DNA of 64,000 nucleotides, from assembly GCA_965214705.1 (NCBI GenBank), contig CBDCCI010000002.1, forward strand, positions 384,001 through 448,000, given 5' to 3'. The notes beneath the pieces were generated by a model that was not told the DNA's origin, made no database searches, and was given only the letters and a program-made list of their open reading frames with translations. A program made the translations under genes and the position numbers. This document shows, in pieces, positions 238 through 49,231 of the stretch (positions are counted from its first letter, which is position 1; each line of letters begins with the position of its first letter). The stretch is from Alphaproteobacteria bacterium (GTDB lineage: Bacteria > Pseudomonadota > Alphaproteobacteria > UBA828).

Positions 238-1500
238 TTATCCGAGCTTCATGTTGGCGACGCCGACGATCCTGTCATAAAGGAAATAAAGCAACAGGAC
301 GAGCGCCAACAGAATCACACCCAAGGCCGCAGCCAGTCCCCAGTTCAACGTCTCGCTGATATGAAGGGCGATGATGTTCGAGATGAACGTGCCGGTTCGG
401 CCTCCAACAAGCGCCGGCGTGATGTAGTAACCGATCGACGAAATAAAGACCAGAATGCAACCGGCACCGATCCCCGGCACGGTATTGGGCATATAGACCT
501 TGATAAAGCCAGTGAAGGGCGATGCACCCAGCGAGCGTGCCGCGCGCATGTACGAAGAGGGAATAGTTTTCATCACGGAATAGAGGGGCAGAATCATGAA
601 AGGCAAGAGAATGTGCGTCATCGCGACGAACGTACCGATCTGGTTGTGGATCATTTGCAATCGGCCGTCTTCGGAAATAATTCCTATGAATACCATCAGG
701 TCGTTCAACACACCCTCGGACTGAAGCAACGCGATCCACGCGGTCGTCCTGACCAGCAGAGAGGTCCAGAACGGCAGCAGGACAAGAATGAGCAAGAGAT
801 TGCTTTGGCGTGGCGGTAATGTCCCGAGTAGGAAGGCAATCGGATAGCCAAGGAGTAAGCAAAATATTGTAATGAGTGCGCTCATCCATAACGTACGATA
901 AAATAAGAACAAGTATATTCGTCGCTCTTCTGCCTTCCAGGATATCTCGCCCTTATAGTCAACCCGAAGGTCCACAGCAGACAAGAGGTAGCTTTCGGTT
1001 ACCTTGCTCGATTCTTGATGAATTAGCTGCCAGGTTGCCAAGTCTGCCCATCGTTGATCAATCGCTAGGACTTGGTCTTTGAAGGGGGCCTCGGTGATGC
1101 GTTTTGCTCGCCGTCCCGATTTCCGGAACAAGCTCATCACTCCGGACTTTTCGTAATTCAAGCGACGCCCGGCACGGCCCAGCGTCTTTTCCTTAAATGA
1201 CTCTTGAATATCCAGCACCAGGGCTTCGTACACGAATTCCGGCGGCAACTCCTCGCTCGCCGGATCCCAACTTTGAATAGCCAGCGTTGTACGGGGAAGA
1301 ACGGACGAAACGATCTGGTTGTCGACGCTTCTGAACAGCATGTCGATGACGGGAAAAACAAATGTGATCAACAAGAACGCCAGAATAGGAACGACCAAAA
1401 GAAATGCGCGAACGCGCCTGCGGGAGGTTGCTCGCCGCAGGCTGCGCTTCAACGGCACGCCGTCGGCGGTTCGCAGGAGGTTATCGGCGGCCGTCGACAT
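238..1500 (-). CDS. Polyamine-type ABC transporter permease (PotB-like)
   Basis: LLPFWTSLLVRT, HILLPFMILPLY and AARSLGA EAA-loop motifs. Confidence 0.9.
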   Translation of the reverse strand: MSTAADNLLRTADGVPLKRSLRRATSRRRVRAFLLVVPILAFLLITFVFPVIDMLFRSVDNQIVSSVLPRTTLAIQSWDPASEELPPEFVYEALVLDIQESFKEKTLGRAGRRLNYEKSGVMSLFRKSGRRAKRITEAPFKDQVLAIDQRWADLATWQLIHQESSKVTESYLLSAVDLRVDYKGEISWKAEERRIYLFLFYRTLWMSALITIFCLLLGYPIAFLLGTLPPRQSNLLLILVLLPFWTSLLVRTTAWIALLQSEGVLNDLMVFIGIISEDGRLQMIHNQIGTFVAMTHILLPFMILPLYSVMKTIPSSYMRAARSLGASPFTGFIKVYMPNTVPGIGAGCILVFISSIGYYITPALVGGRTGTFISNIIALHISETLNWGLAAALGVILLALVLLLYFLYDRIVGVANMKLG

Positions 1501-1583
1501 GCGCGCAGGCCTAGGTCTGGCTCAGGGGCCTCGAAGGAATGGAGGTGGGACGCATGTCTGCGCCCCGCCCCATTGAGGCTTTG

Positions 1584-2687
1584 CTATTTCGCGAGCCAGG
1601 TGTTGAACACCTCGTCGAGCTCCGCCCGGTGGTCGGCCCACCAGACGTAGTCGAAATCGAAAATAGTCGCGGCGTTGTTTGGATCCGTCGGCATGTGGGG
1701 CTTCATGTCGATGCCGAGATCGGCATGGTTGCCCACGAGCGGCGCCGACGAGTAGCGCGCCGGACCGTAGGAAATGAACTTCGCCTGGTCCGCCAGACGC
1801 TGCGTATCGGTGGCAAAGTGGAGATACGCCTTCACCGCATCGAGATCCTTGACGCCAACCGGCACGACCCAGCCGTCGAGATCGAAAATCTGCCGATCCC
1901 ACATCATGGCGATGGGCTGGTTCTTCTCCGCGATGGCCGAGAAGAGGCGGCCGTTGTAGGCCGAGGCAATGACGACCTCGCCGTCCGCCAGAAGCTGCGG
2001 CGGCTGGGCTCCCTTGGTCCACCAGACCACCTGATCCTTGATGGTATCGAGCTTTGCCAAGGCACGGCTCACGCCCTCGGACGTGCTGAGCATGCCGTAG
2101 ACATCTGCAGGTGCCACACCATCGGCGAGCAGCGCCCATTCGAGATTGTTGATGGGCCGCCTCTCCAGCGAGCGCTTGCCGGGGAACTTCTCCAGGTCGA
2201 ACACGTCGGCAATGGTCGACGGCTGATCACCCTCGAAGACATCCGTGCGATAGCCGAAGGTCGTGGAATAGACGATCTGCGGGATGAAGCAGTTGGTCCC
2301 GCCCGGTGACAGCGTGCCGGCGAAGAAGTCTTCCGACGCAGGGGTCCCGTCCGGCGCGGGAGCCAGCCACGTGTCGGGATCGATTTCCATGATCAGGCCT
2401 TCGTCGCACGCGGTGATCGCGTCGGCTGCGACCATGTCGACGATGTCCCAGGTGACGTTACCGGACTCGACCTGGGCCCTTACTTTGGCCAGCCCTTCGG
2501 CGGCGTTGTCGTCGTTGACGATGTTGATGTCGGGGTTCGCGGCCATGTAGGGGTCGTGATAGGCCTTCTGCTGGCTCGCCGTATAGGCGCCGCCCCACGA
2601 CACGATCGTGAGGTCAAGTGCCTGGGCACTGCCAGCCGCCAACGCGACGCCGGCGGCAACGACAGTCGTACTCAATAGCCATCTCAT
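1584..2687 (-). CDS. ABC transporter substrate-binding protein (PotD/PotF family)
   Basis: Signal peptide MRWLL...AQA; LTIVSWGGAY, FDLEKFPGKR, SAYNGR motifs. Confidence 0.9.
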   Translation of the reverse strand: MRWLLSTTVVAAGVALAAGSAQALDLTIVSWGGAYTASQQKAYHDPYMAANPDINIVNDDNAAEGLAKVRAQVESGNVTWDIVDMVAADAITACDEGLIMEIDPDTWLAPAPDGTPASEDFFAGTLSPGGTNCFIPQIVYSTTFGYRTDVFEGDQPSTIADVFDLEKFPGKRSLERRPINNLEWALLADGVAPADVYGMLSTSEGVSRALAKLDTIKDQVVWWTKGAQPPQLLADGEVVIASAYNGRLFSAIAEKNQPIAMMWDRQIFDLDGWVVPVGVKDLDAVKAYLHFATDTQRLADQAKFISYGPARYSSAPLVGNHADLGIDMKPHMPTDPNNAATIFDFDYVWWADHRAELDEVFNTWLAK

Positions 2688-2771
2688 CTCGCTTACTCCC
2701 CTCTCGTTTGCCGGACACACCGGCGGGTTCTCAAGCCTCGCATCGGCAACACCGACACGTCTTGATCTGCT

Positions 2772-3887
2772 CTAACCGGGCTCGGCTGCGTCAACCGGAG
2801 CGTCCAGCGCCCGGCAATCTTCTGCAGCCCAGCCCAGGTTGACGTCCATTCCCTCCCGCAACGCTGCATGCCGATCTGTGTTGGGAATCTTCACAACGAA
2901 CTCGTCAGTTCCCGCGACCGACAGGCGCGCACGGATATGATCTCCCAGATAGATCAACTCCTCGACGCGACCGACAATCGAGTTATCCGCCTCCCCGTCT
3001 TCACACGCGACGATAACGCGCTCGGGACGAAGAGACAGGGTCGTGCGTGCGCCTGCCCCCTCGACCTTTACATTGAGGGCTCGAATGGTGCCACCACCAT
3101 CCAAATTCACTTGGCAATGGTTCCCTTCAACGGAATTAACCTTGCCGCACAAACGATTGTTCTCGCCGATAAACTGCGCAACGAAGGCGTTCTCCGGTTG
3201 CTCGTACAGCGCGCTAGGACTTGCCAATTGCTGAATTACACCATCATTAAAGACCGCAATACGATTGGACATGGTCAATGCTTCGGACTGATCGTGCGTG
3301 ACGTAGACGATCGTGACGCCGAGCTCTTCGTGAAGATGCTTGATTTCGTACTGCATCTCCTCTCGCAGATTCTTGTCCAAGGCGCCGAGAGGCTCATCCA
3401 TAAGCACCAAGTCAGGCTCGAATACCAATGCCCGTGCCACCGCCACGCGTTGCTGCTGGCCGCCCGAGAGTTGGCCGGGCCGGCGGCCACCGAAGTCCGG
3501 CAGGCGAACCATGTCCAGCGCGCGCTTGACTTTCGCCTCGACCTCCGATTTCGGAATCCTTCGGACTTTCAAAGGAAACGCCAGGTTCTCCGTGACTGTC
3601 ATGTGCGGAAACAGCGCGTAATCCTGGAAGACCATACCGATATTTCGTCGATGAGGGGCAACCTTATTGATCGGCCGCTCGTTCAAGTATATTTCGCCAT
3701 GGGTTGCCGGCTCAAATCCAGCCAGCATCATCAGGCACGTGGTCTTTCCGGACCCCGAGGGGCCCAGCATCGTCAAGAATTCGCCAGTCTTGATACTCAA
3801 ATTGAGATCTTTGACGACCAGAGTCTCGCCATCGTAGCTCTTTTGCACGCGGTCAAAGACCACGATATCCCGGGCATCCTGGGTCAT
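2772..3887 (-). CDS. potA: Polyamine-type ABC transporter ATP-binding protein
   Basis: Walker [17 protein letters not shown] signature, [14 protein letters not shown]-like C-terminus. Confidence 0.9.
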
Positions 3888-36670: not shown

Positions 36671-37392
36671 CTCTCGAGGGCGACTCGGAGACCGGCGCTA
36701 CGGTGCCGTTCTCGCCAAACCTGAGTAGGAGACACGATATGCCCCCCAAGAACGAGACCGCGACGCCGGCCGAGGCGGAGGGGAGCGAAGAACAGGCGGC
36801 GGTGAAAATCGCAGCGCTCACCCGGCTGAAGTCGATCGGCGAGAACGAAGCGACGGTGCTCGTCCACGAAATCTTCTACCGCCGCTTCCGCAACCGCCGT
36901 GAGCTCGCGAGCTGGGTCGGCCTGACGCCGACCCCCTGGGCGAGCGGCGACACGCAGCGCGACCGGGGGATTGACCGCGACGGTCCGGCATGGATCCGGG
37001 CACAACTCATCCAAATGGCGTGGCGTTGGCTGCGCTATCAGCCCGAGAGCCCTCTCAGCGCGTGGTTCGAGGAGCGCACTGCGGGCTCTCGGGGACGGAT
37101 GCGCAAGGTGATGGTGGCGCTCGCCCGCAAGCTGCTGATCGCGCTCTGGCGGTTCGCCGAGACCGGTCTCGTCCCGACGGGCGCCAAGCTCGTCTGATCG
37201 CGAGACCGCGCTGATCCAGACTGGCCGGACGCGGCCAGCGCTGGGCCGGGTGGCGAGTGGCCGAGCCTCTCACGGGCTGAAACACGCCGAGCAGGAGATG
37301 GGCCCCGCCTCCGGAACGCTGCGCCCGCAGCAAGCGGGATCGAGGGATGGTTCCGGCGCACCGCCGTTGAAAGAGAAACCTCCCGGATAAGA
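36670..37392 (+). mobile_element. IS110-family remnant C: transposase C-terminus (stop 37197) plus partial 3' non-coding end
   Basis: FRNRRELASWVGLTPTPWASG, ALARKLLIALWR; 3' scaffold shared with 45790-45970. Confidence 0.8.
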
Positions 37393-38376
37393 GTTGGGTA
37401 CGGGTGCCGAGCGTGGAGGAGGAGGACCGCAAGCGGTTGCTCCGTGAGCGTCGGCGGCTGGTGAAGGAGCGGACGTCGCTGACGAACTCGATCAAGGGGC
37501 TACTCAAGCTGCAGGGGGTCTTCGACTTGGATCCTCGGGCCAAGGAGTTCGAGGAGAAGTTCGCGGACGCGGTGACCGCATACGGCTCACTGTTCCCGCC
37601 GCGGGCGCGTCAGGAGATTCTGCGGCTTGTGGAGCGGCTGTCGCTCGTGCAGCGGCAGATCACGGCAGTCGAGGCCGAGCGGGATGCGGTTGTCCGCCAG
37701 GGCGCCGCTATCCCGGCGCCGGTCGCGCCGCAGCGAAGCGAGGAGCGGGCGGCGGCCAGGATCGCGACGTTGGCCCAGCTGAAGGGGATCGGCGCGAACG
37801 ACGCGATGCTGCTTGAGCACGAGATCTTCTACCGCGACTTCGGAAACCGCCGTGAGCTTGCGAGCTGGGTCGGGTTGACGCCGACCCCATGGTCGAGCGG
37901 GGACATGCAACGCGACCAGGGGATCGACCGCGACGGTCCGGCCTGGATCCGTGCCCTCCTCGTCCAAATGGCGTGGCGCTGGTTGCGCCATCAACCCGAC
38001 AGCGCGCTTAGCAAGTGGTTCGATGAGCGCACCGCCTGTTGTTTCGCACGTTATTTGACGCCGAATCTCCCAGATTATTTGACGTGATCGCTGCCCTGAT
38101 TTCCCAGATTGCTCGGTCTTTTCCGGATCGAAGCGTAGGAGCTCATGGTCTCTGCGGGCGGTCCGGGGTCGCTGTCTGATTGAGGTTTGGACTGGTGCTT
38201 GAGGAGGGCTGACGAGGTGTCGCGCGGCCGTCCACACGACGAAGTGCTGCCATGGCCTGAAGCAAGCTTCCGGCCACGGACTGGCCGCTCACTTGACGTA
38301 GTATCCCGGTGGAGGCGCAGCGCCTTCCGGACCGTTGGGGAGGGGTGGTTCCCGACGGCGGTTCCGGCTCGAACCC

Positions 38377-39414: not shown

Positions 39415-40214
39415 GGCCGCAACTCCTCTAGCGCGTGCTGCAGGTGCTCGGCGCTGACGGTCCTCGCCTCGTCGAGGGCGGCGGCGGAGAGCGCGTAGTG
39501 GGCGATGCGGTTGATCTGGCGCGGCAGGCCGCGCGCGCTCTGGAACAGGGCCTCGACGGCGGGCTCCTCGAAGAGCGGCAGCTCGCATCCCGCGAGCCTG
39601 AGGCGGTGCTTGATGTAGGCGTCGACCTCATCTCGGTCGAGGCCGGTGAGATGATGGCGGACGACGAGGCGCTGGCTGAGGGATTCGTGCATCGCCATGG
39701 CGAGACGCCGCCTGAGCTCGGTCAGGCCGACGAGGACGAGGCACAGGCGCTGCTCCGAATCCATGGCGAAGTTGGTGAGCAGGCGCAGGTCCTCGAGCAC
39801 GTCGTTGCGCAGGTGATGGGCCTCGTCGATGACGAGGACCGGCAGCTGCTTGGCCTCGGTGACGAGGCGGGAGATCTCGTTGCGGATTGCCTGATGGGCC
39901 GAGGCGCGCGAGCGCTCGATGGGCAGGCCGAGCTCCCACGCGATCGATTTGTACATGTCGAGCACGTTGCCCGTGGTCAGCGAGACGTAGTGGACCCGGT
40001 AGAGGCCAGGGTGGAGCTGCGCCGTCAGGTGCCGGCAGGCGGTGGTCTTGCCGGAGCCCACCTCGCCGGTGAGCAGGCCGATACCGCGCAGCTCGATGAG
40101 GTGGCCGAGCCTGGCCTCGGCCTCGCGGCGCGCGTTGGACTCGAACAGCTCGTCGGTCTCTGTCGGGGTCTCGAAGGGCAGGCGGGTGAAAGCGAAGTGG
40201 CGCTGGTACATCAC
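39411..40214 (-). CDS. ExeA-family AAA ATPase (transposition helper)
   Basis: HFAFTRLPF, TGEVGSGKT, VIDEAH, LVLVG, GLPRQIN. Confidence 0.88.
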   Translation of the reverse strand: MMYQRHFAFTRLPFETPTETDELFESNARREAEARLGHLIELRGIGLLTGEVGSGKTTACRHLTAQLHPGLYRVHYVSLTTGNVLDMYKSIAWELGLPIERSRASAHQAIRNEISRLVTEAKQLPVLVIDEAHHLRNDVLEDLRLLTNFAMDSEQRLCLVLVGLTELRRRLAMAMHESLSQRLVVRHHLTGLDRDEVDAYIKHRLRLAGCELPLFEEPAVEALFQSARGLPRQINRIAHYALSAAALDEARTVSAEHLQHALEELRP

Positions 40215-41539
40215 TCGTCCTCCTTCTTGTCCTTGAGCTTGTGCATGGCCAGCGGCGAGGGCGGGGGCTCGGGCGCCGGGTCCTCGGCCTCGATCTCCCT
40301 GGCCGGATAGGTGCGCCTGACGGCGGTGTTGGCGTAGGCGTCGAGAGGGGTAGCCTTGCCGGCCGGCTTGCCGTCATGGACCACGTCGAGAGGGCGCGAG
40401 GGCGGCGCGGCCGGGTCGTAGCGCAGGGTGATCTTCTCGCCGACCAGCACGGTATCGACCTCGTAGACGCAGCCGTCGAGACTGACGGTGCGATCCTTGT
40501 AGACACGGCGCTTGGCCTCGAAGAGGAACAGATCGTCGAGGTCCATGGTGGCGTCGGGATAGCGCACGCCGGCCGAGGCCAGCGCCCACTGCTCGAGCGG
40601 GGTGCGCCCCTCGTCGAGGCCACGATGCGGGCTGTTGTGATACTCCCCCTCGATCCAGGCCCAGAGGCTGCGGTTGAGCGCCTCCAGGCTGTCGACGTCA
40701 TCGCCGAGGTGGCGAAGCCAGCCGGCCCGAAGGGTGCGGAAGAAGCGCTCGATCTTACCCTTTCCCGCTGGCTGGAACGCTCTTGCGTGAATCAACGCAA
40801 CGCCGAGCCTGGCGCAGACCAGGGAGAGATGACGGGAGCGGTAGGCGCTTCCGTTGTCGACGTACAAGCGGGCCGGGAGGCCGCGCCGGATCAGCGCGTC
40901 CTTGAACACCGGCAGGAACGCCGCAGTGTTCTCCGCCATGGCGAAGGCGGCGAACGGGATGACGCGGGTGGCGTCGTCGATGAAGGCGATCAGGTAGGTC
41001 TTGCGCCGGCTGCGGCCGTGCCGGACCTTGGGTCCGTGCATGACGTCGCTCATCCACATCTCGCCGGCATGCCGGAAGGCGAAGCGGCGGCGATCCGCCC
41101 CGTCGGGCGGCTTCTTGTCGAACAGGCCCTCGCGGCTGAAGAGGCGGTGCACGGTGGACGAGGCGAGCGGGTGGTCGATACCCTCCTCGTGAGCCTTCTG
41201 GATGATGGCGCGGACCGACAATGCGTCGTTCTCGGTCTTCAGCGCGATGAGGCGCTCGGCGACCTCGGGCGGCAGCCGCCGGGGCTTCCCCCGGTCGGTA
41301 CGGGGCTTGGGGTAGAGCGCGTCGAAGCCGCCGTAGCGGTAGTCCTTGATCCAGCGCCGCATGGTCTCGGCGGCGACCCGGGTCCTGGTGGTTCCGGGGA
41401 TTGTGTAGGTCTTCTCGGCTTTGGCGCGCATCATCGCGCCGGCACCCGGTGCACCCACGGGCAGATGTACCAGATCGGCGATGACGTCGTATCGGAAGAG
41501 CGCGATCTGTTGGCGAAGGTCGTCGTCTGAGCTGTTCAT
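40211..41539 (-). CDS. Mu/IS481-like DDE transposase
   Basis: WMSDVMHG, FIDDATR, YVDNGSAY, GKIERFF, Mu-type C-terminus. Confidence 0.9.
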   Translation of the reverse strand: MNSSDDDLRQQIALFRYDVIADLVHLPVGAPGAGAMMRAKAEKTYTIPGTTRTRVAAETMRRWIKDYRYGGFDALYPKPRTDRGKPRRLPPEVAERLIALKTENDALSVRAIIQKAHEEGIDHPLASSTVHRLFSREGLFDKKPPDGADRRRFAFRHAGEMWMSDVMHGPKVRHGRSRRKTYLIAFIDDATRVIPFAAFAMAENTAAFLPVFKDALIRRGLPARLYVDNGSAYRSRHLSLVCARLGVALIHARAFQPAGKGKIERFFRTLRAGWLRHLGDDVDSLEALNRSLWAWIEGEYHNSPHRGLDEGRTPLEQWALASAGVRYPDATMDLDDLFLFEAKRRVYKDRTVSLDGCVYEVDTVLVGEKITLRYDPAAPPSRPLDVVHDGKPAGKATPLDAYANTAVRRTYPAREIEAEDPAPEPPPSPLAMHKLKDKKEDE

Positions 41540-42443: not shown

Positions 42444-44494
42444 CAACAGCAATGAGGATTCTGCTGACGATCAAAAAAATGCCGCAGGCAGCGTCCTTCC
42501 CGCACTCGGCCACCATCCCGGGAAATCCACCAACCAATCAAAGTGAGAAAAAAACCCGTGCTTCTATCCGGCTAGACCGGAAAACAACACCGCCGGAGCC
42601 CGGGGACGCATTCGTCGAGTGATGATCGTGGCAGTCGCCCGCAAGCTGCTCATCGCGCTGTGGCGGTTCTCCGAGACCGGTCTCGTGCCGACGGGCGCTA
42701 GGCTCGCCTGACGCCGGGACCGCAACTCTCTAGCCCGGCCGGACGCGGCCGACGCTGGGCCGGGTGGCGAGTGGCCGAACTTCACCAGGGCTGAAATACG
42801 CCGAGTCGTAGATGGGCCCCGCCTCCGGAACGCTGCAGCCCGCAGCAAACGGGATTGAGGGACGGGTCCGGTGCATCGCCACCGGTCACCGCCCGGATAA
42901 AAGGTGGGTGTGCGCTCAAGCGCGACCGATAGCGAGCGTTCCGACCTGGCAACGCGCTGATCCGGTCAACCACGAGGGAGGAATGGCATGCAGTGAAGCT
43001 CCGCTTCCATCCCCATCTGCACGTGGTCGTCCCCAACGCGGGCTTCGACGTCGCGAACGGCGAGTGGAAGACCGGGAGCGGCACCTTCCTTGCCCCCGTC
43101 AAGGTCCTCGCCAGCCTGTTCCGCCGCCGCTTCCTCGAAGACCTCGCCCGCGCCCATGGGCGGGGGGAGCTGGAGTTCCACGGCACCGTCGCCCATCTCG
43201 CCAACCCCGGCGAGTTCCACGCCGCCCTCGCCGCCGCCCGCGGCAGGGACTGGGTAGTCTACGCCAAGCGGCCCTTCCGCGGGCCGGCCCAGGTGTTCCG
43301 ATACCTCGCCCGCTACACCCACCGGATCGCCATCGGTGACAGCCGCATCACAGGCTTCGATGGCGAGACCGTCTCCTTCCGGCACCGGAAGCCGAAGCAG
43401 GCGGGGCAGAAGAAGCCGCGCTACGGCACCATGACTGTCAGCGCCGACGAGTTCATCCGCCGCTTCCTGCTCCATGTCCTTCCCGACGGGATGCACCGCA
43501 TCCGTCACTTCGGCATCCTCTCCAACGGATGCCGGACCACGACGTTGGCCAGCGCGCGCGAGGCTTTCGGCTCTATCGGCTGCCCCGACGATGAGTGTGT
43601 GGACGACGATGCGCCCGAAGGCCAACGTGAGCGTGACGAAGCAGCGGAGCCCGCGGCCGCTCCCGTCGCCTGTCCCGATTGCGGAGCGCCGCTGCGCCTC
43701 GCCCAGTCTCACCAATGTAGCCGGTGAATCTCACCCGAAGTAGCCGGCGAATCTCATCCAAAGTAGCCACCCGATCTCAGCAAAGTAGCCACCCCGGAGC
43801 GAAGCGACGCGGTTACGTTTTTGTGGGCGGTTCTCCCTCCGCGATTTCTCCGTGATCGGTACCACCGCCGAAGGCCCGGTGGCAAGGCGGTGGAGCATGG
43901 TGCGCGCGCGGCGCGTGAGACCCCTCACGCGTCTGGCGGCGCGCGCGCGCCATGCCTGGCACCATCCGTCCCGCCCCTCCGACGCCCCGGAGCGGAGCGA
44001 CGATCACGCCGCGCGCAGCGCGGCGCTCTGTAGTCGCGTTCATGCCTTTTTCCCTGCGGCAGCGTCGTCGATACGCATGGACGTGCCGTGCAGCTCGATG
44101 CGGATGGCACCATGGACGAGGCGGTCGAGGATGGCGTCGGCGACCGTGGGATCGTTGAGCTGGCGGTGCCAATCGGCCACCGGCAACTGGCTGGTGACGA
44201 TCACCGAGCGCCGGCCGAAGCGGTCGTCGAGGATTTCGAGGAGATCGCGCGCGCGAGCCGCATCGATGGGCGCGATGCCCCAGTCGTCGAGGATCAGCAC
44301 CTCGATGCGGGCGAGGTCGCGGTAGAGCTTCGGGATCGTGCCCTCGCCATGGGCGATGCGCAGCTCGGTGAGCAGCCTGGGCACGCGGTGGTACTGGGCG
44401 ATGTGGCCCTCGAGGCACGCCTTGTGGCCAAGGGCACAGGAGATCCAGATACCATGAGCACGGTGGCATCGAATCGCGTCTGGCAGTTAGAGAA

Positions 44495-44528
44495 GCTCGG
44501 AGAGAAGGCCAGCACCTTCTCTCCGAGC
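44495..44528 (+). promoter_or_regulatory. Perfect 14-bp hairpin upstream of the IS110 transposase
   Basis: GCTCGGAGAGAAGG-ccagca-CCTTCTCTCCGAGC. Confidence 0.55.
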
Positions 44529-44554
44529 GGAATCGTCAACAACGGAGTGGACGG

Positions 44555-45751
44555 ATGTCGGATGGTCCAGACACGACCGCGCTGACAGGCGCAAGTAGTA
44601 GCACGATTTATGTCGCGGTGGAGATCAGCCTCAAATCGTGGATTGTGGGCGTGCATTGCCCGGATGCCTCGGGTGGCAGCATCAGCATCCACACACTGGC
44701 TGCTGCCGACACGGCGGGACTGTTGGATCTCGTCGGGTCGGTGCGGGAACGGGTGGCGAGGGAGCTCGGCGCCCGTCCTCGGGTGATGCTGACCTACGAG
44801 GCGGGCTACGAGGGGTTCTGGCTGGCCCGCGATATCGAGCGCCGTGACGCGGAGATCGATATCTTCATGAACGATCCGGCGAGCCTGCGGGTGAACCGGC
44901 GCGCCAAGAAGAAAAAGACCGACCGCATCGACGCGAGGAGAATGGTTCGGGCTCTGAAGGCATGGGACCAAGGCGATTCGGAGGCCATGTCCTGGGTGCG
45001 CGTGCCCGACGTGGACCGGGAGGACGCCAAGCGCCTGCTGCGCGAGAGGGACACGCTGATCAGCGAGCGTACCCGCGTCAACAACCGGATCAAAGGGCTC
45101 TTGCAGTTGCACGGCATCTTCGATCTGGCGCCGCGCAAGCCGGACTTCCTCGAACGCCTCGCGGCCGCGCGGACGGGCTATGGGGCGCCGTTGCCGCCGC
45201 GGGCGCGTGCGGAGATCGAGAGGGCGGTGCGGATGCTTCGCCTGGTTGAGGACCATATCGAGATGATCGAGGCCGAGAAGAAGGCCCTGCTGAAGGCTGG
45301 CCGGAAAACCCAGGACGCGACCGACGGTGACGGGACGGCGATGATCGCGGCGCTTACGCGCATCCACGGCATCGGCCTCAATGACGCCACACTGCTGGCT
45401 GGCGAGGTGTTCTATCGGGACTTCCGCAATCGCCGGGAGTTGGGCAGCTGGGCCGGGTTGACGTCGGTGCCGTGGGCGAGCGGAGATGTCGACCACGATC
45501 TTGGCATCAGCAAGGCCGGCCCCTCGCATGTCAGGAAGCACATGATCCAGATGGCCTGGCGCTGGTTGAAACTGCAACCGGAAAGCGCGATCACGAAGTG
45601 GTTCCATGCCTACGTCGCCAGGGATGCCGGTGGCGGGAGGGACCGGCGAGCGAGGAAGCGGGCGATCGTGGGGGTCGCGCGCAAGCTGCTGATCGCGCTG
45701 TGGCGCTATGCCACCCAGGGACTGGTGCCCGAGGGCGCCATCGTCTCCTGA
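44555..45751 (+). CDS. IS110-family recombinase/transposase
   Basis: VAVEIS, YEAG, KTDRIDA, WASG...GISKAG, VARKLLIALWR. Confidence 0.93.
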   Translation: MSDGPDTTALTGASSSTIYVAVEISLKSWIVGVHCPDASGGSISIHTLAAADTAGLLDLVGSVRERVARELGARPRVMLTYEAGYEGFWLARDIERRDAEIDIFMNDPASLRVNRRAKKKKTDRIDARRMVRALKAWDQGDSEAMSWVRVPDVDREDAKRLLRERDTLISERTRVNNRIKGLLQLHGIFDLAPRKPDFLERLAAARTGYGAPLPPRARAEIERAVRMLRLVEDHIEMIEAEKKALLKAGRKTQDATDGDGTAMIAALTRIHGIGLNDATLLAGEVFYRDFRNRRELGSWAGLTSVPWASGDVDHDLGISKAGPSHVRKHMIQMAWRWLKLQPESAITKWFHAYVARDAGGGRDRRARKRAIVGVARKLLIALWRYATQGLVPEGAIVS

Positions 45752-45789
45752 GGACAGCAGCCGAACGAACAGGAGAATACAGGAGGTTC

Positions 45790-46020
45790 CGACGTGGTCG
45801 GACGCGGCCGCGGAGGATGCCGGGCAAGGCGTGTGACCGGGCAAGAGTTGGGTCGCCGCTTGGCACCGTTCTACAGATGGGTCCCGCCTCCCGGAACGTC
45901 GTTACCGCTTGGATGCGGTATTGGGGTCACGGAGCCGGCAAGCGCCGGAGTTCCGAACCGGATAAGAGCTGAGCAGCGTGACGAATCGCTGCGTGGGAAG
46001 GACGTTCTGCCTGGCCATCA
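45790..46020 (+). ncRNA. Candidate bridge/seek RNA of IS110 element A (ends approximate)
   Basis: Target match at 45838-51; donor matches at 45917-22 and 45962-68; scaffold shared with two sibling ends. Confidence 0.75.
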
Positions 46021-46446
46021 ACCGCGGACTCGAAGGGGAGAACAGGAATGCCATTGACGTAGATGAAGCCGGGCCTTGCGGAGAGAGCTCATAAGAACTC
46101 TTGCCCGTGCCGCACGGTCCGGTGATCAGGATGTTGGCGCCGTTGCGGACCCAGGCGCAGTCTGCGAGGCCGAGCACGAGACTGCGGTCGAGGCCGCGCG
46201 GACGGCTCAGGTTGATATCCTCGAAGCAGGCGTCCTGATGGCGCAGCTGCGCCCTCTTGAGGCGCCGCTGCAGGGCCCTGGAGCGGCGCTCGGCGATCTC
46301 GCGATCGATCAGCAGCGCGAGCCGATCCTCGAAGGGCATGTCGTCGAGGTCGTTGCGCGCCACCTGCTCGAGGAAGGCGGCGTGCATGCCTGGCAGGCGC
46401 AGCGAGGCGATGCGCTCGGCCAGCGGGTGGGAGACGGGGTTTTCGG

Positions 46447-47979
46447 TCATCGGTAGGCCTCCGGTCCTCTGATGTTGGAATGATCGATGGGCATGGTCTC
46501 GGGTTCCTGCTCGGCGGCGGCGCGGTCGGCGCCGGTGCGCAGGATGTTCTCGAGCCCGCGGTAGCTCCGCGTGCCGAGCTCGAGCGCGTAGCGGCAGGCG
46601 CCGTCGAAGCGGTCCTGCTCGTAGCTCTTGGCCAGCCGGAGGACGCCGTAGCAGGCACGGAAGCCGAACTCCGGATTGTTCTGCCGCTTCATGAGCGCGA
46701 CGATGTAGGCGTGGACATGGGGCCCGATATCGCGCGCGTTCTTCTCCAGCTGGGCGCGGGTGGCCTCGACGCCGGCGCGTTGGTGCGCCTTCGGTTTGTG
46801 CTCTTCGACGGTGGTGGCGCGGCCCCTGGCTGAGCTGCGGATATGGCTGGCGACGTGCCGGCCCCGGAGGAAGACGTCGATCAGGTTGTCGCGCAGGCGG
46901 ACGTCGACCTCCTTGCCGATGAGCTCGTGGGGCACCGAGTAGAAGTGGTAATCGATGGCGATGTGATAATCGCGGTGGACCGTGTTCTTGCGCCACACGG
47001 TGTGCTGCCAGCGCCGTTCCGGCAGCGGCTTCATGTGGGGGCGGTCGACGCTCTCGAAGCGGCCGTAGCGGTTCTCGCCGGTGCCGTCGGCATAGGGCCG
47101 GCTGTTGATCTTCCTGACCTGGGCGGCGATCGCGCGGTTGGCCGATGGCAGATCATGGAAGACGCGCTTGCGCAGGGGCGCGAGAATCCAGCGCTCGCCC
47201 TGGAGCACGCCGTTCTCGACCAGGGCTTTGTCGCGCGGCTTCTTCACGCGCGCCGGGAAGCCCTGAACGTCATAGTGTTCGAGCAGATCGGCGTAGGTCT
47301 CGTTGAGGACCGGCTCGTAGCGCGAGGGCTTGATCACCGCCGGCTTGATGTTGTCGGGCACCACGACCTGCGGCACGCAGCCCATATCCTTGAAGCAGCG
47401 CACGTGCGAGGCGCACCAGTCCTCGATCTTCTGGCTGAGCGTCGCCTCGGCGTAGAGCCGCCCCGAGACGCCCATCGAGGCTACGAACACCTGCGCCTCG
47501 TGCTCGGCCCCGTCGATCATGATCGGGATCGTCATGCCGGCGTAATCGACGAACAGCCTCTCGCCGGGACGGCGGTTCTGGCGCATCGTCGCGTCCCGGC
47601 GCGGCCGCCACTCCCGGAAGCGGCGGCACCAGGTCGGATAGCTCATGCCGCCGGGATGGGTCTCGCGCCATTCCTCCCACAGCAGTTTCAGGGTCACGCC
47701 CTGCTCGGACAGGTCCGTCTCGACCTTCGCCCAGTCCACCTCCTGCTGCGGCGCGGCTTGCGTGGGCGCCGGAAACAGCGCCGCCTCCAGCGCCTCCTCG
47801 GCCATGTCGCCGGCTTCCGGCCAACTCAACCCGGACGCCGCGAACCGCTCCAGGACCGACGCCACCGAGCGTCGCGCCATACCGCAGTGGGTTGCGATCA
47901 CGCGGGCGCTGCGTCCCTCCTCGAAATGGAAACCAAGAACCTTCTTCACCTTTCTCATCGGCAACCTTCCCCGTGCCAT
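46447..47979 (-). CDS. istA: IS21 transposase IstA
   Basis: PGERLFVDYAG, VVPDN, PRDKALVENGV, HFYSVPH. Confidence 0.93.
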   Translation of the reverse strand: MARGRLPMRKVKKVLGFHFEEGRSARVIATHCGMARRSVASVLERFAASGLSWPEAGDMAEEALEAALFPAPTQAAPQQEVDWAKVETDLSEQGVTLKLLWEEWRETHPGGMSYPTWCRRFREWRPRRDATMRQNRRPGERLFVDYAGMTIPIMIDGAEHEAQVFVASMGVSGRLYAEATLSQKIEDWCASHVRCFKDMGCVPQVVVPDNIKPAVIKPSRYEPVLNETYADLLEHYDVQGFPARVKKPRDKALVENGVLQGERWILAPLRKRVFHDLPSANRAIAAQVRKINSRPYADGTGENRYGRFESVDRPHMKPLPERRWQHTVWRKNTVHRDYHIAIDYHFYSVPHELIGKEVDVRLRDNLIDVFLRGRHVASHIRSSARGRATTVEEHKPKAHQRAGVEATRAQLEKNARDIGPHVHAYIVALMKRQNNPEFGFRACYGVLRLAKSYEQDRFDGACRYALELGTRSYRGLENILRTGADRAAAEQEPETMPIDHSNIRGPEAYR

Positions 47980-48542
47980 CCCAGCCCCCCTCGGATGAGT
48001 CGCGAAATCCGACGGGTAGGACGGCGCTCTGAGTCGCACCAAAAGCCGCCGCCCCGAGGGGGTGGCTACTTTCGGTGAGACCGGGTGGCTACTTTCGGTG
48101 AGATTCGGCGGCTACTTTGCCTGAGATTGGGTGGCTACTTTCGTGAAATTCGGCACGTCCGCCAGATCCCTCGCCAGCGTCCCGCCCACGCGAGCCGGGC
48201 GCCACCCGACGGGTGCCCGAACACGGGTCGCAGCCGTGGGTAATCCCTTCGCTTCAGCTTCGTGCGTCCGCGCCGTCCCGATGGCGAGCCAGATGACCCG
48301 TGCGCAATCTCACTCGCGGCCGAAGCCGTCCCGCCGGCTCAGGGCGATCTCCCCAATTCCTGTGACCATGGGCGTCGCGACGCTGGCGGAAACAGCAGCG
48401 TCGACCATAGGCATCCCGCCAATCGTCCCTTCGTAAGCGCGCCACCAGTGCACTTTCCACATACCGGCCACCCGAGCTCGGGGGCCCGCGGCTTCGTTCA
48501 ACCAGGTTGAGCAGGCTCTGGCGAACCTGCTCAACCCTAAAG

Positions 48543-48623
48543 ATTATGCCGACAACGCTTGAGAAAAAGCCCGGGGATTCAATGCCCCGGGCTGCAAACG
48601 CGGCATAACCCTATTGTCGGCAT
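48543..48623. repeat. Short palindromic segment resembling a RIT-element end
   Basis: TTATGCCG...CGGCATAA; ATGCCGACAA/TTGTCGGCAT IR; internal GCCCGGGG hairpin; truncates the DUF4338 ORF. Confidence 0.4.
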
Positions 48624-49231
48624 GGCGCGAGTTGTTGGCGATCAGATGCAGGCGCCGGAACTGCTGCTCCGCCGACCACCCGATCCAGCGATCCCGCGCG
48701 CCCAGCTTGAACGCGCCAGGCTGCCAGCCGATCAGTGCGAGCCAAGTCTCGCCGTGCACCGCGACATGGCGCAGGCCCTTGCCGATGACGCCGTGGAACG
48801 CCAGATAGTGGTGCTCCTCAACCAGCCGGTCCCAGCGCCGGTGCTCCTGCGCGCCCCAGGTCGGGCGCACCGTGACCGCGCGCAGATCAATGGACGAATC
48901 CAGAACCGGCAGCGTCGCCATGAGCGGCACACTGCCACATCGAGAACAGAATGGTCAGCCCCGACTTCAGCTCAACCTGCTCGACCGGCGGACAATAAAT
49001 GCGCCCTGCGATCGACCGCGAGGTCCTGGCGTCAACACGAGCCTCGATACGACCTCAGCCAACTGTCCAGTCGCCGTTCAGCTTGCGATCTTCCCCTCGC
49101 CGCGGGGAGGGGGACCCGGTCTGGCCAAACGTCACGCAGCCGCCTGCCGCCAGGAACGCCACTACTTTGTCATCCACCGACGCGCCGCCATTGCAGCGCG
49201 CCAAGTCATCGTTCTTCATCGTCACCCCGTG
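48624..49231 (-). pseudogene. DUF4338/ISAs1-type element 5' remnant
   Basis: EHHYL...RDRWIGW...LIANNSR, then cut; leader homologous to 51690-51790. Confidence 0.7.

Follow-up and report, generated by a model that had tools for sequence, protein, structure and literature searches.

Here, an insertion sequence (IS) located at positions 44448-46096 of a 64,000-nt stretch of alphaproteobacterial DNA was analyzed together with its relatives; the stretch is referred to as the window, and position numbers refer to its whole length unless another locus is named. The explanation that best accounts for the observations overall, and which is considered probable, is that the sequence is an IS110-family element of IS1111-type architecture with a bridge/seekRNA encoded in its 3' end, and that its insertion into the istB gene of an IS21-family element is a secondary, near-cognate hit. 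A preliminary description of this DNA had already proposed an IS110-family element with an IS1111-type guide RNA at the 3' end, and this assignment is upheld by matches to Pfam and NCBIfam models and by covariation of the guides.

Anatomy of the element and its position in istB

The element and the host IS21 copy comprise the following features.

44448-46096, + strand: whole IS110-family element, 1649 bp, delimited by an empty paralogous site in the genome and by contigs skipping exactly 1649 nt
44448-44459, + strand: left end, in which the sub-terminal inverted repeat ATGAGC comes after a 6-nt extension, GATACC; conserved at 21 of 21 left ends
44495-44528, + strand: perfect 14-bp hairpin of the left end, directly upstream of the ribosome-binding site and the start codon of the transposase gene
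44555-45751, + strand: transposase/recombinase gene, 398 aa, the sole open reading frame (ORF) of the element, with Pfam and NCBIfam matches
46087-46096, + strand: right end, with the sub-terminal inverted repeat GCTCAT (46087-46092), partner of the left-end ATGAGC, followed by the extension AAGA
46097-46456, - strand: N-terminal part of istB, ending ...GPCGTGKS; Pfam IstB_IS21 positions 3-105 of 238
44040-44447, - strand: C-terminal part of istB, starting WISCALG...; Pfam IstB_IS21 positions 107-233 of 238
46447-48042, - strand: istA of the host IS21-family element; ORF with Pfam Mu-transpos_C_2

The IS21 istB gene is split at its Walker A codons, GKS|WI, and the element lies antisense to it. 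Disruption at these codons, as claimed in the preliminary description, is evident from the two IstB_IS21 pieces flanking the element. Excision of 44448-46096 in silico joins ...GGAGATCCA to ACTCTTGCCCGTGCC..., and the restoration of GKSWI reported earlier is exact save for a boundary ambiguity of 1 nt (A), by which 44447-46095 is equally valid. The genome also contains an uninterrupted IS21 paralog, which agrees, its junction ...GGAGATCCA|ACTCTTGCCCG... being gapless (C1:621628-621329, 98.7% over 300 nt, 4/300 flank differences), and the intact paralogous istB (L066:1626-2387) reads ...GPCGTGKSWISCALG.... Contigs from public sequencing runs agree as well: in two runs from two studies (X1 and X5), one contig each joins 44446 to 46096 and thereby skips 1649 nt. 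Over approximately 150 nt on either side, these contigs show zero differences from the flanks of the window copy. Since 4 of 300 positions are different in the other IS21 copy, the contigs carry the window copy's own flank alleles and represent the empty form of this very copy. The insertion is therefore polymorphic, as judged from contigs only, one of the two runs being possibly the source sample. By splitting istB, the insertion is predicted to disable the ATPase of the window IS21 copy.

The transposase matches Pfam DEDD_Tnp_IS110 (PF01548) and Transposase_20 (PF02371), and scores 174.5 bits against the NCBIfam model NF033542, "IS110 family RNA-guided transposase", for which the cut-off is 140. 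Non-coding sequence amounts to 107 nt at the left end and 345 nt at the right (3') end, and all four guides are situated in the latter. The left-end hairpin is preserved in u3, another sequence variant in the genome, by changes in both arms (from CTCGGAG/CTCCGAG to CCCGGAG/CTCCGGG).

Guides and structure of the 3' end

Six features were delimited in the 3' end.

45828-45888, + strand: target-binding loop of the predicted bridge/seekRNA, from the RNAalifold consensus of 13 relatives
45840-45849, + strand: T guide GGCAAGAGTT, which complements the top strand across core and right flank; located in the 10 nt that follow the conserved GTG[AG]CCG; 10/10 at its own site
45869-45875, + strand: B guide TTCTACA, reading in the sense of the left flank and occupying the 7 nt that precede the conserved GA[TA]GGG (GA at 45876-77); placed by homology
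45893-46008, + strand: donor-binding multiloop with inner helices, closed by 45893-45900 with 46001-46008
45917-45922, + strand: donor guide GGTATT, of which GGTAT is complementary to the left-end ATACC and the sixth position forms G.U against GATACC
45962-45968, + strand: donor guide ATAAGAG, same sense as the right end ATAAGA plus the first left-end base G

The segment CGGGCAAGAGTTGG at 45838-45851 is the exact 14-nt reverse complement of the restored istB site across the junction, as the preliminary description had observed. When the 345-nt non-coding end was shuffled 5000 times with dinucleotides preserved and compared on either strand with the 40-nt site, the longest match was 12 nt, and 0/5000 reached 14. 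Pairing of the T guide at istB extends over 14 nt exactly, or over 16 nt with one G.T. The second half of the target guide, earlier reported as impossible to locate, can be placed by homology at 45869-45875. Its agreement with AGATCCA, the left flank at istB, is limited to 3/7 positions, a background level (cross-pair mean 2.74), and rises to 5/7 plus one G.U at CTCTTCA, the flank of the IS91 site described below; in relatives, 4-7 of 7 B-guide positions agree with the element's own left flank.

Agreement of guides with their own and with foreign sites was compared over 11 guide/site classes, from which L048 was left out, as were u2 and two P2 copies, whose guide classes duplicate a retained row. 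For the T guide, the mean at own sites is 8.45/10, with at least 8 in 10/11 classes, L053 being counted with its farther right end (8/10), chosen after the nearer one had given 5/10. Cross pairs average 4.22/10 with a maximum of 7, and 0/108 reach at least 8. For the B guide, the means are 5.45/7 at own sites and 2.74/7 for cross pairs, 8/108 of which reach at least 5. From its change with the flank, the 14-mer segment is judged to be a true target guide. Regarding L053 (1413-3401), two right-end copies approximately 400 bp apart are present, and the T guide fits the flank after the farther one.

The two circle-junction matches noted in the preliminary description, GGTATT and ATAAGAG, both covary with the element ends across relatives. 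Where the left end is GATCC instead of GATACC, relatives show GGATC or GGATT in the same alignment columns. Furthermore, ATAAGAG is present in 9/9 aligned elements with the right end ..ATAAGA and ATAAAAG in 4/4 with ..ATAAAA; agreement between donor guide and right end is observed in 13/14 elements, the exception being L048. The dinucleotide AG occurs at both junctions in 9/10 delimited elements outside the u-family, to which the window copy belongs, L053 being included only with its farther right end, as the nearer one is followed by A. This is what would be expected of a shared core. In the u-family, AG is found at the left junction and AA at the right, so that the second base of the core is not the same in target and donor. 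Irregular right junctions occur exactly at the core position: u2 (G000:C3:1766890) has T for A, and u3 (G000:C3:485334) is one base short of the empty site. A joint of right end to left end, as in a circle, was not listed among the public-run contigs, to which this search was confined.

The RNA alignment (A1) comprised the 3' ends of 13 of the 15 delimited elements, namely four u-type copies, the relative L031, four paralogs of 54-55% identity from this genome, and four elements found in further genomes of the genus; L048, whose 3' end was misaligned, and one of two identical P2 RNA regions were dropped. In the target-binding loop, a closing stem (45828-45838 with 45880-45888) surrounds both guides together with a distal hairpin (45851-45867), in the order invariant GTG[AG]CCG, 10 variable nt (T), short hairpin, 7 variable nt (B) and invariant GA[TA]GGG. 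The closing stem displays compensatory changes from A-U to G-C and from C-G to U-A. The long-range helix has 8/8 pairs in 13/13 relatives, and its last two pairs covary (TC/GA, TT/AA, CT/AG). Seven pairs change on both sides, and 0/500 shuffles reach the covariation score. Over the 32 consensus pairs, 98.3% of cells are paired, compared with 29-45% when the partners are slid, a count made on the same alignment from which the consensus was derived, which favours the structure.

This last circumstance weighs against the RNA-guided reading, and others are to be added to it. The fold of 45752-46096, proposed for examination in the preliminary description, is as a single sequence no better than shuffles (z -0.91), as is that of 45785-45990 (z -1.81); what stands of the proposal is the consensus of the 13 relatives with its covarying pairs. 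A scan of 44000-46600 against Rfam (E up to 1) yielded no relevant match, a promoter scan of the linear element found 0 sigma-70-like promoters, and the candidate promoter formed by joining of the ends is weak (TTGCGG, 17 nt, TACCAT; 3/6 and 4/6). Contigs X19 and X20 from RNA libraries represent 90-95% relatives, are perhaps DNA-derived, and are uninformative on transcription of the window copy. Moreover, the T guide matches poorly in two relatives, P1b (5/10) and, with the nearer right end, L053 (5/10).

Some candidates were set aside in the course of these scans. Single-sequence folds, which bury the guide in a stem, were replaced by the comparative structure, and the Rfam matches mir-339 and tpke11 are at chance level (E ~0.8-0.9) and outside the guide region. 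Two terminator-like sites on the minus strand in the element scan are at shuffle level.

It could be supposed that no RNA is involved, the recombinase protein itself reading a short DNA core (CAAC) and the 3'-end matches being due to chance or to a captured target. Such a mechanism would suit the RNA-library contigs, which gave no transcript evidence for this copy, and the CA|AC core that u-family sites share. It is nevertheless extremely unlikely in view of the shuffle test, the covariation of guide and site in 10/11 classes with 0/108 cross pairs as good, the covariation of the donor guides, and the conserved structure with its compensatory pairs. Relatives of the element are, in addition, experimentally RNA-guided according to the available portions of PMC11187229 and PMC11208160, to which all statements on these two papers refer.

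On the favoured reading of an element with a 3' guide RNA, the following process may be proposed. The 3' end would be transcribed into a bridge/seekRNA of approximately 180 nt (about 45828-46008), to which the recombinase would bind. The T guide would pair with the top strand of core and right flank, and the B guide with the bottom strand of the left flank. Within the donor multiloop, GGUAUU would pair with the left-end GATACC, and AUAAGAG would repeat the sequence of the right end. The complex of recombinase and RNA would then bring the circularised element, with its predicted joint ...CATAAGA|GATACC..., to a DNA site fitting the target loop, and strand exchange would take place at the A[A/G] core, without target duplication. 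One and the same RNA would thus accept two site classes in this genome, IS91 zinc-finger codons (19 insertions) and istB Walker A codons (1).

Insertion sites in the genome and the choice of target

The genome, 7.9 Mb in 3 contigs, was searched for copies, and their sites were assigned to class A (istB Walker A, in the window), class B (zinc-finger codons of IS91-family tnpA) or class C (another istB, occupied by u3). It contains 18 full-length copies in 6 sequence variants. Among the 21 left ends, 19 belong to class B, where they abut ...CCGCTCTTCA, one to class A, and one to class C, where it abuts ...CGTCCACA. The class B site, CTCTTCA|ACTCCTGCC (extended, CTCTTCA|ACTCCTGCCGC), represents the codons L-F-N-S-C-R in the Zn_Tnp_IS91 domain of an IS91-family transposase (Pfam; NCBIfam NF033538). 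Its host element is present in roughly 90-100 copies; the empty sites that remain number 68 exact ones of class B (79 by BLAST) and one of class A. All 19 class B insertions have one orientation, and comparison of empty with filled sites in classes A, B and C demonstrates insertion without target duplication. Only AACTC[T/C]TGCC is common to classes A and B, on opposite coding strands.

Every variant at the IS91 site (u1, u2, u4 and u5 are all located there) carries a guide segment identical to that of the window copy, u0, and the IS91 site is complementary to this T guide at 9/10 positions, with one A.C mismatch. The sole difference between u1 and u0 is a 13-nt indel, and 13 u4 copies are identical; together with the empty form of the window site, these observations are consistent with recent mobility of the element. 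The preliminary description had considered the element to be programmed against istB Walker A. This does not agree with the predominance of IS91 sites in the census, nor with the better fit of the B guide to IS91, and Walker A codons of istB, which it had suggested looking for beside homologous copies, flank 1/21 left ends in the genome. It had also held that the same 11-mer at unrelated sites would speak against a guide. The IS91 sites are formally such a case, but being 9/10 complementary they favour RNA guidance.

Changes of guide and site together can be observed in two relatives. In u3, which is 86% identical, AATAGGCGTT replaces the T guide GGCAAGAGTT, and the site corresponding to this version is GTCCACAACGCCTAT. 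The u3 site, GTCCACA|(A)CGCCTATCGC (in shorter form GTCCACA|(A)CGCCTAT), represents the codons D-R-I-V-H-N-A-Y-R near the C-terminus of another IS21-family istB. In L031, from another genome and with 86% amino-acid identity to the window transposase by tblastn, the guide is ACCACCAGTT and the site ...TCTACA|ACTGGTGG. To judge from their sequences, u0, u3 and L031 are a case of natural retargeting within the u-family.

The istB site fits the T guide perfectly over 14-16 nt and the B guide poorly, and for this reason the window insertion is read as a secondary, near-cognate hit rather than as one aimed at istB. Most likely, it is owed to the unusually long T-guide pairing. Several observations weigh against this reading. 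The T guide fits istB (10/10, 14 nt contiguous) better than IS91 (9/10), the A.C mismatch to IS91 is kept in all lineages, and per-site occupancy is 1/2 for class A against about 19/98 for class B. With the mismatch conserved and occupancy of istB not lower, the data cannot say on which site the guide was selected. The 19 class B insertions are possibly not 19 independent events, because interrupted IS91 copies could move in trans. Finally, the perfect 10-nt T complement AACTCTTGCC occurs 8 times in the genome outside element copies and is filled at the window site alone; the empty occurrences are the other IS21 copy and six unrelated sites. That these six perfect sites are empty indicates that T pairing alone is insufficient.

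Some of these observations would suit the view that istB Walker A is the site for which the guide evolved, IS91 insertions being off-targets that are frequent only through the presence of some 100 near-matching sites. Besides the closer T-guide match (16 nt with one G.T) and the occupancy, it could call on the unchanged guide in lineages 92-100% identical despite the IS91 mismatch, and on the sister copy u3, which also targets istB, at another site. This view is unlikely: agreement of the B guide with istB is at background level, in contrast to IS91, there is a single such insertion in one genome, and the other u-type variants are all in IS91.

A further view, which is distinctly unlikely, is that neither site is the original one. 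The joint specification of the guides would be ...TCTACA|ACTCTTGCC..., of which an IS91 variant with the codons L-Y-N-S-C is one example, and both sites would be near-cognates used after arrival. In agreement with it, the B guide TTCTACA is mismatched at both sites and equals the left flank TCTACA of the L031 site, and the combined specification lies two substitutions from the IS91 site, one of them in a synonymous Ser codon. The combined 15-nt motif, at up to one mismatch, is nevertheless absent from this genome. Across the class, 36 scattered matches in 32/401 genomes were obtained, none of them placed in an IS91 gene, and the reversed control gave an apparently similar, untallied rate, which makes this a null result.

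The genome offers a natural experiment on bridge/seekRNA specificity, in which one RNA is found at two unrelated sites fitting its guide halves to different degrees. A sister copy occupies a third site with only the guide bases rewritten, and distant relatives allow the four guides and the fold to be read by covariation. For engineering, there is a hint that long pairing in the right flank can offset a poor left-flank guide, which would be a route to off-targets. It should be noted that in an IS-rich genome the repeats on offer are the genes of other insertion sequences, so that RNA-guided elements can thin out other transposons.

Related loci were sought further afield. A search of genome contigs gave only 4 relatives, L031-L034, of which only L031 entered the guide analyses, the end-motif scan having defined no element in L032-L034. 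An order-wide search of 49 genomes gave matches in 9, the closest outside this genome being 54-55% identical. In this genome, 5/6 site classes of the clade are in transposition genes of other insertion sequences: IS91 tnpA, two istB sites, another IS110-family transposase gene (L087:360-1463) and a DDE_Tnp_1 transposase gene (L088:1063-1809). The sixth could be assigned to no gene. Pfam gave nothing in 4 frames of the P1a empty-site region. The L031 flanks were likewise without a Pfam match in 6 frames, and 10 frames flanking L039, L040, L048, L053 and L056 gave two matches alone, rve_3 next to L039 and, below threshold, DEDD_Tnp_IS110 next to L053. As a single flank of these five elements from other genomes gave a transposase domain above threshold, the habit of landing in IS genes is shown for this genome only, and it may simply mirror which repeats abound in this IS-rich genome.

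The clade may tentatively be seen as specialised parasites of other transposons, although this is unlikely. Guides would drift onto conserved codons of transposition genes, and in-frame sense insertion would borrow the expression signals of the host IS while silencing a competitor. At the class B site (G000:C2:57090) and at the second istB site (G000:C3:483685), the element is sense-oriented to the host gene. There, the transposase frame is open through the 107-nt left end, in frame with IS91 TnpA residues 1-62 and with the IstB N-terminal part, respectively, and the gene call P0002 is a 660-aa IstB+Transposase_20 protein. If true, the targets would be the IS91 zinc finger, the Walker A and C-terminus of IS21 IstB, another IS110-type transposase and a DDE_Tnp_1 transposase, and the promoter-less guest transposase would be read as a fusion with the start of a host IS gene, or coupled to it.

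Further observations concern individual copies and their surroundings. A tandem partial duplication is present at G000:C1:1873054-1874867, where the last 165 nt of a full copy (element positions 1485-1649) are repeated directly behind it. In the IS91 copy L065 (G000:C3:39500-44500; ORFs 1900-2655(-), 1413-2132(-) and 2662-3702(-)), the Y2 transposase is in two frames (Y2_Tnp positions 1-66 and 71-180), and a phage-integrase-family gene lies directly upstream. Just upstream of the DDE_Tnp_1 transposase interrupted by P1b, an ORF with a DruA (Druantia) domain and DDE_Tnp_1_assoc is located (L088:11-1066; G000:C1:638310-639365). The neighbourhood of the element is itself a patchwork of mobile-element remains (window 36874-38025, 40211-41539, 42624-42665, 42993-43727 and 48544-48930), including IS110-type fragments related to the element, an rve/Mu-type transposase, a Y2_Tnp fragment and a DruA-domain fragment.

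Family placement and comparison with known systems

On the features available from its sequence, the element is assigned to the IS110 family, with an architecture of IS1111 type, and is not counted as a confirmed member of the IS1111 family. The protein models place it in the IS110 family, and its insertion is site- and orientation-specific and free of duplication. In common with the IS1111 group, it possesses a 3' non-coding region with a guide RNA and the extensions (A)GATACC and AAG(A), the published left and right extensions measuring 6-7 nt and 3 nt, respectively (PMC11187229). As in bridge/seekRNAs, two strand-specific target guides change with the target, donor guides correspond to the element's own ends, and a conserved predicted structure holds the guides in loops. 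The perfect inverted repeat ATGAGC/GCTCAT of 6 bp (8 bp in relatives, TATGAGGC/GCCTCATA) is outside the published IS1111 ranges of 11-13 bp (PMC11187229) or 7-17 bp (PMC11208160). The same applies to the transposase of 398 aa, whose best-matching homologs are mostly 385-400 aa, against 330-350 aa in IS1111 (PMC11187229).

With regard to protein motifs, the C-terminal GL-P----S(t)G of the IS1111 group is fitted by relatives (GLTPTPWASG), and the window element has GLTSVPWASG, with S for the first P. Candidate motifs of the DEDD catalytic tetrad were assigned by pattern, not by structure: YEAG (E) and KTDRIDA (D..D). By pattern only, the first catalytic motif, VAVEIS (residues ~20-26, window 44612-44632), has E where D is expected in 12/15 clade members; this type of pattern was not found in L031 (longest open frame 264 aa), L039 or L048. 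A phmmer search against chains in the Protein Data Bank gave no match at E up to 0.01.

A close likeness is to the IS1111 seekRNAs of ISEc11/ISXne4, ISPa11, ISKpn4 and ISPst6 (Siddiquee et al. 2024, PMC11187229). In both, the non-coding region lies 3' of the transposase gene, the top-strand guide is 5' of the bottom-strand guide with matches meeting or overlapping at the insertion point, and sub-terminal inverted repeats are accompanied by an asymmetric extension of 6-7 nt and 3 nt. The relation among u0, u3 and L031 is analogous to that of ISEc11 and ISXne4, with retargeting by replacement of guide bases only. Differences are the transposase of ~395-398 aa, the 6-bp inverted repeat and a first catalytic residue that is apparently E, not D. 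Furthermore, the sites used here lie in the coding sequence of other IS genes, and the RNA is known from sequence, whereas it is demonstrated for those elements.

Known site-specific insertion sequences of the superfamily also interrupt other transposable elements; those target non-coding terminal repeats, whereas conserved tnpA and istB codons are targeted here. A literature search that included the available portion of 10.64898/2026.08.14.744561 found none in which codons of istB or IS91 are described as targets of IS110-type elements, which is not proof of absence. The target logos and IS lists of PMC11187229 and Supplementary Table 5 of PMC11208160 may already contain relatives of the clade or targets in IS genes.

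In comparison with the bridge RNA of IS621 (Durrant et al. 2024, PMC11208160), a single RNA of ~180 nt is again predicted, with a target loop followed by a donor region, each DNA being read on both strands, and a mismatch to the natural target is tolerated. In contrast to IS621, the RNA lies in the right end instead of the left, the guide order is reversed, and the donor guides are in a multiloop, a layout that agrees with the IS1111-type bridge RNAs, whose donor-binding nucleotides are held in a multiloop (PMC11208160). The core is A[A/G] instead of CT, target and donor cores differ in the u-family, and the protein is too distant for a phmmer match to the solved chains. Extra pairing beyond the nominal right-target guide shifts the choice of genomic site in IS621 (PMC11208160), to which the 14-16-nt match at istB looks comparable. 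The element described here is no new kind of system; bridge/seekRNA elements are already known, and this one is newly added to them.

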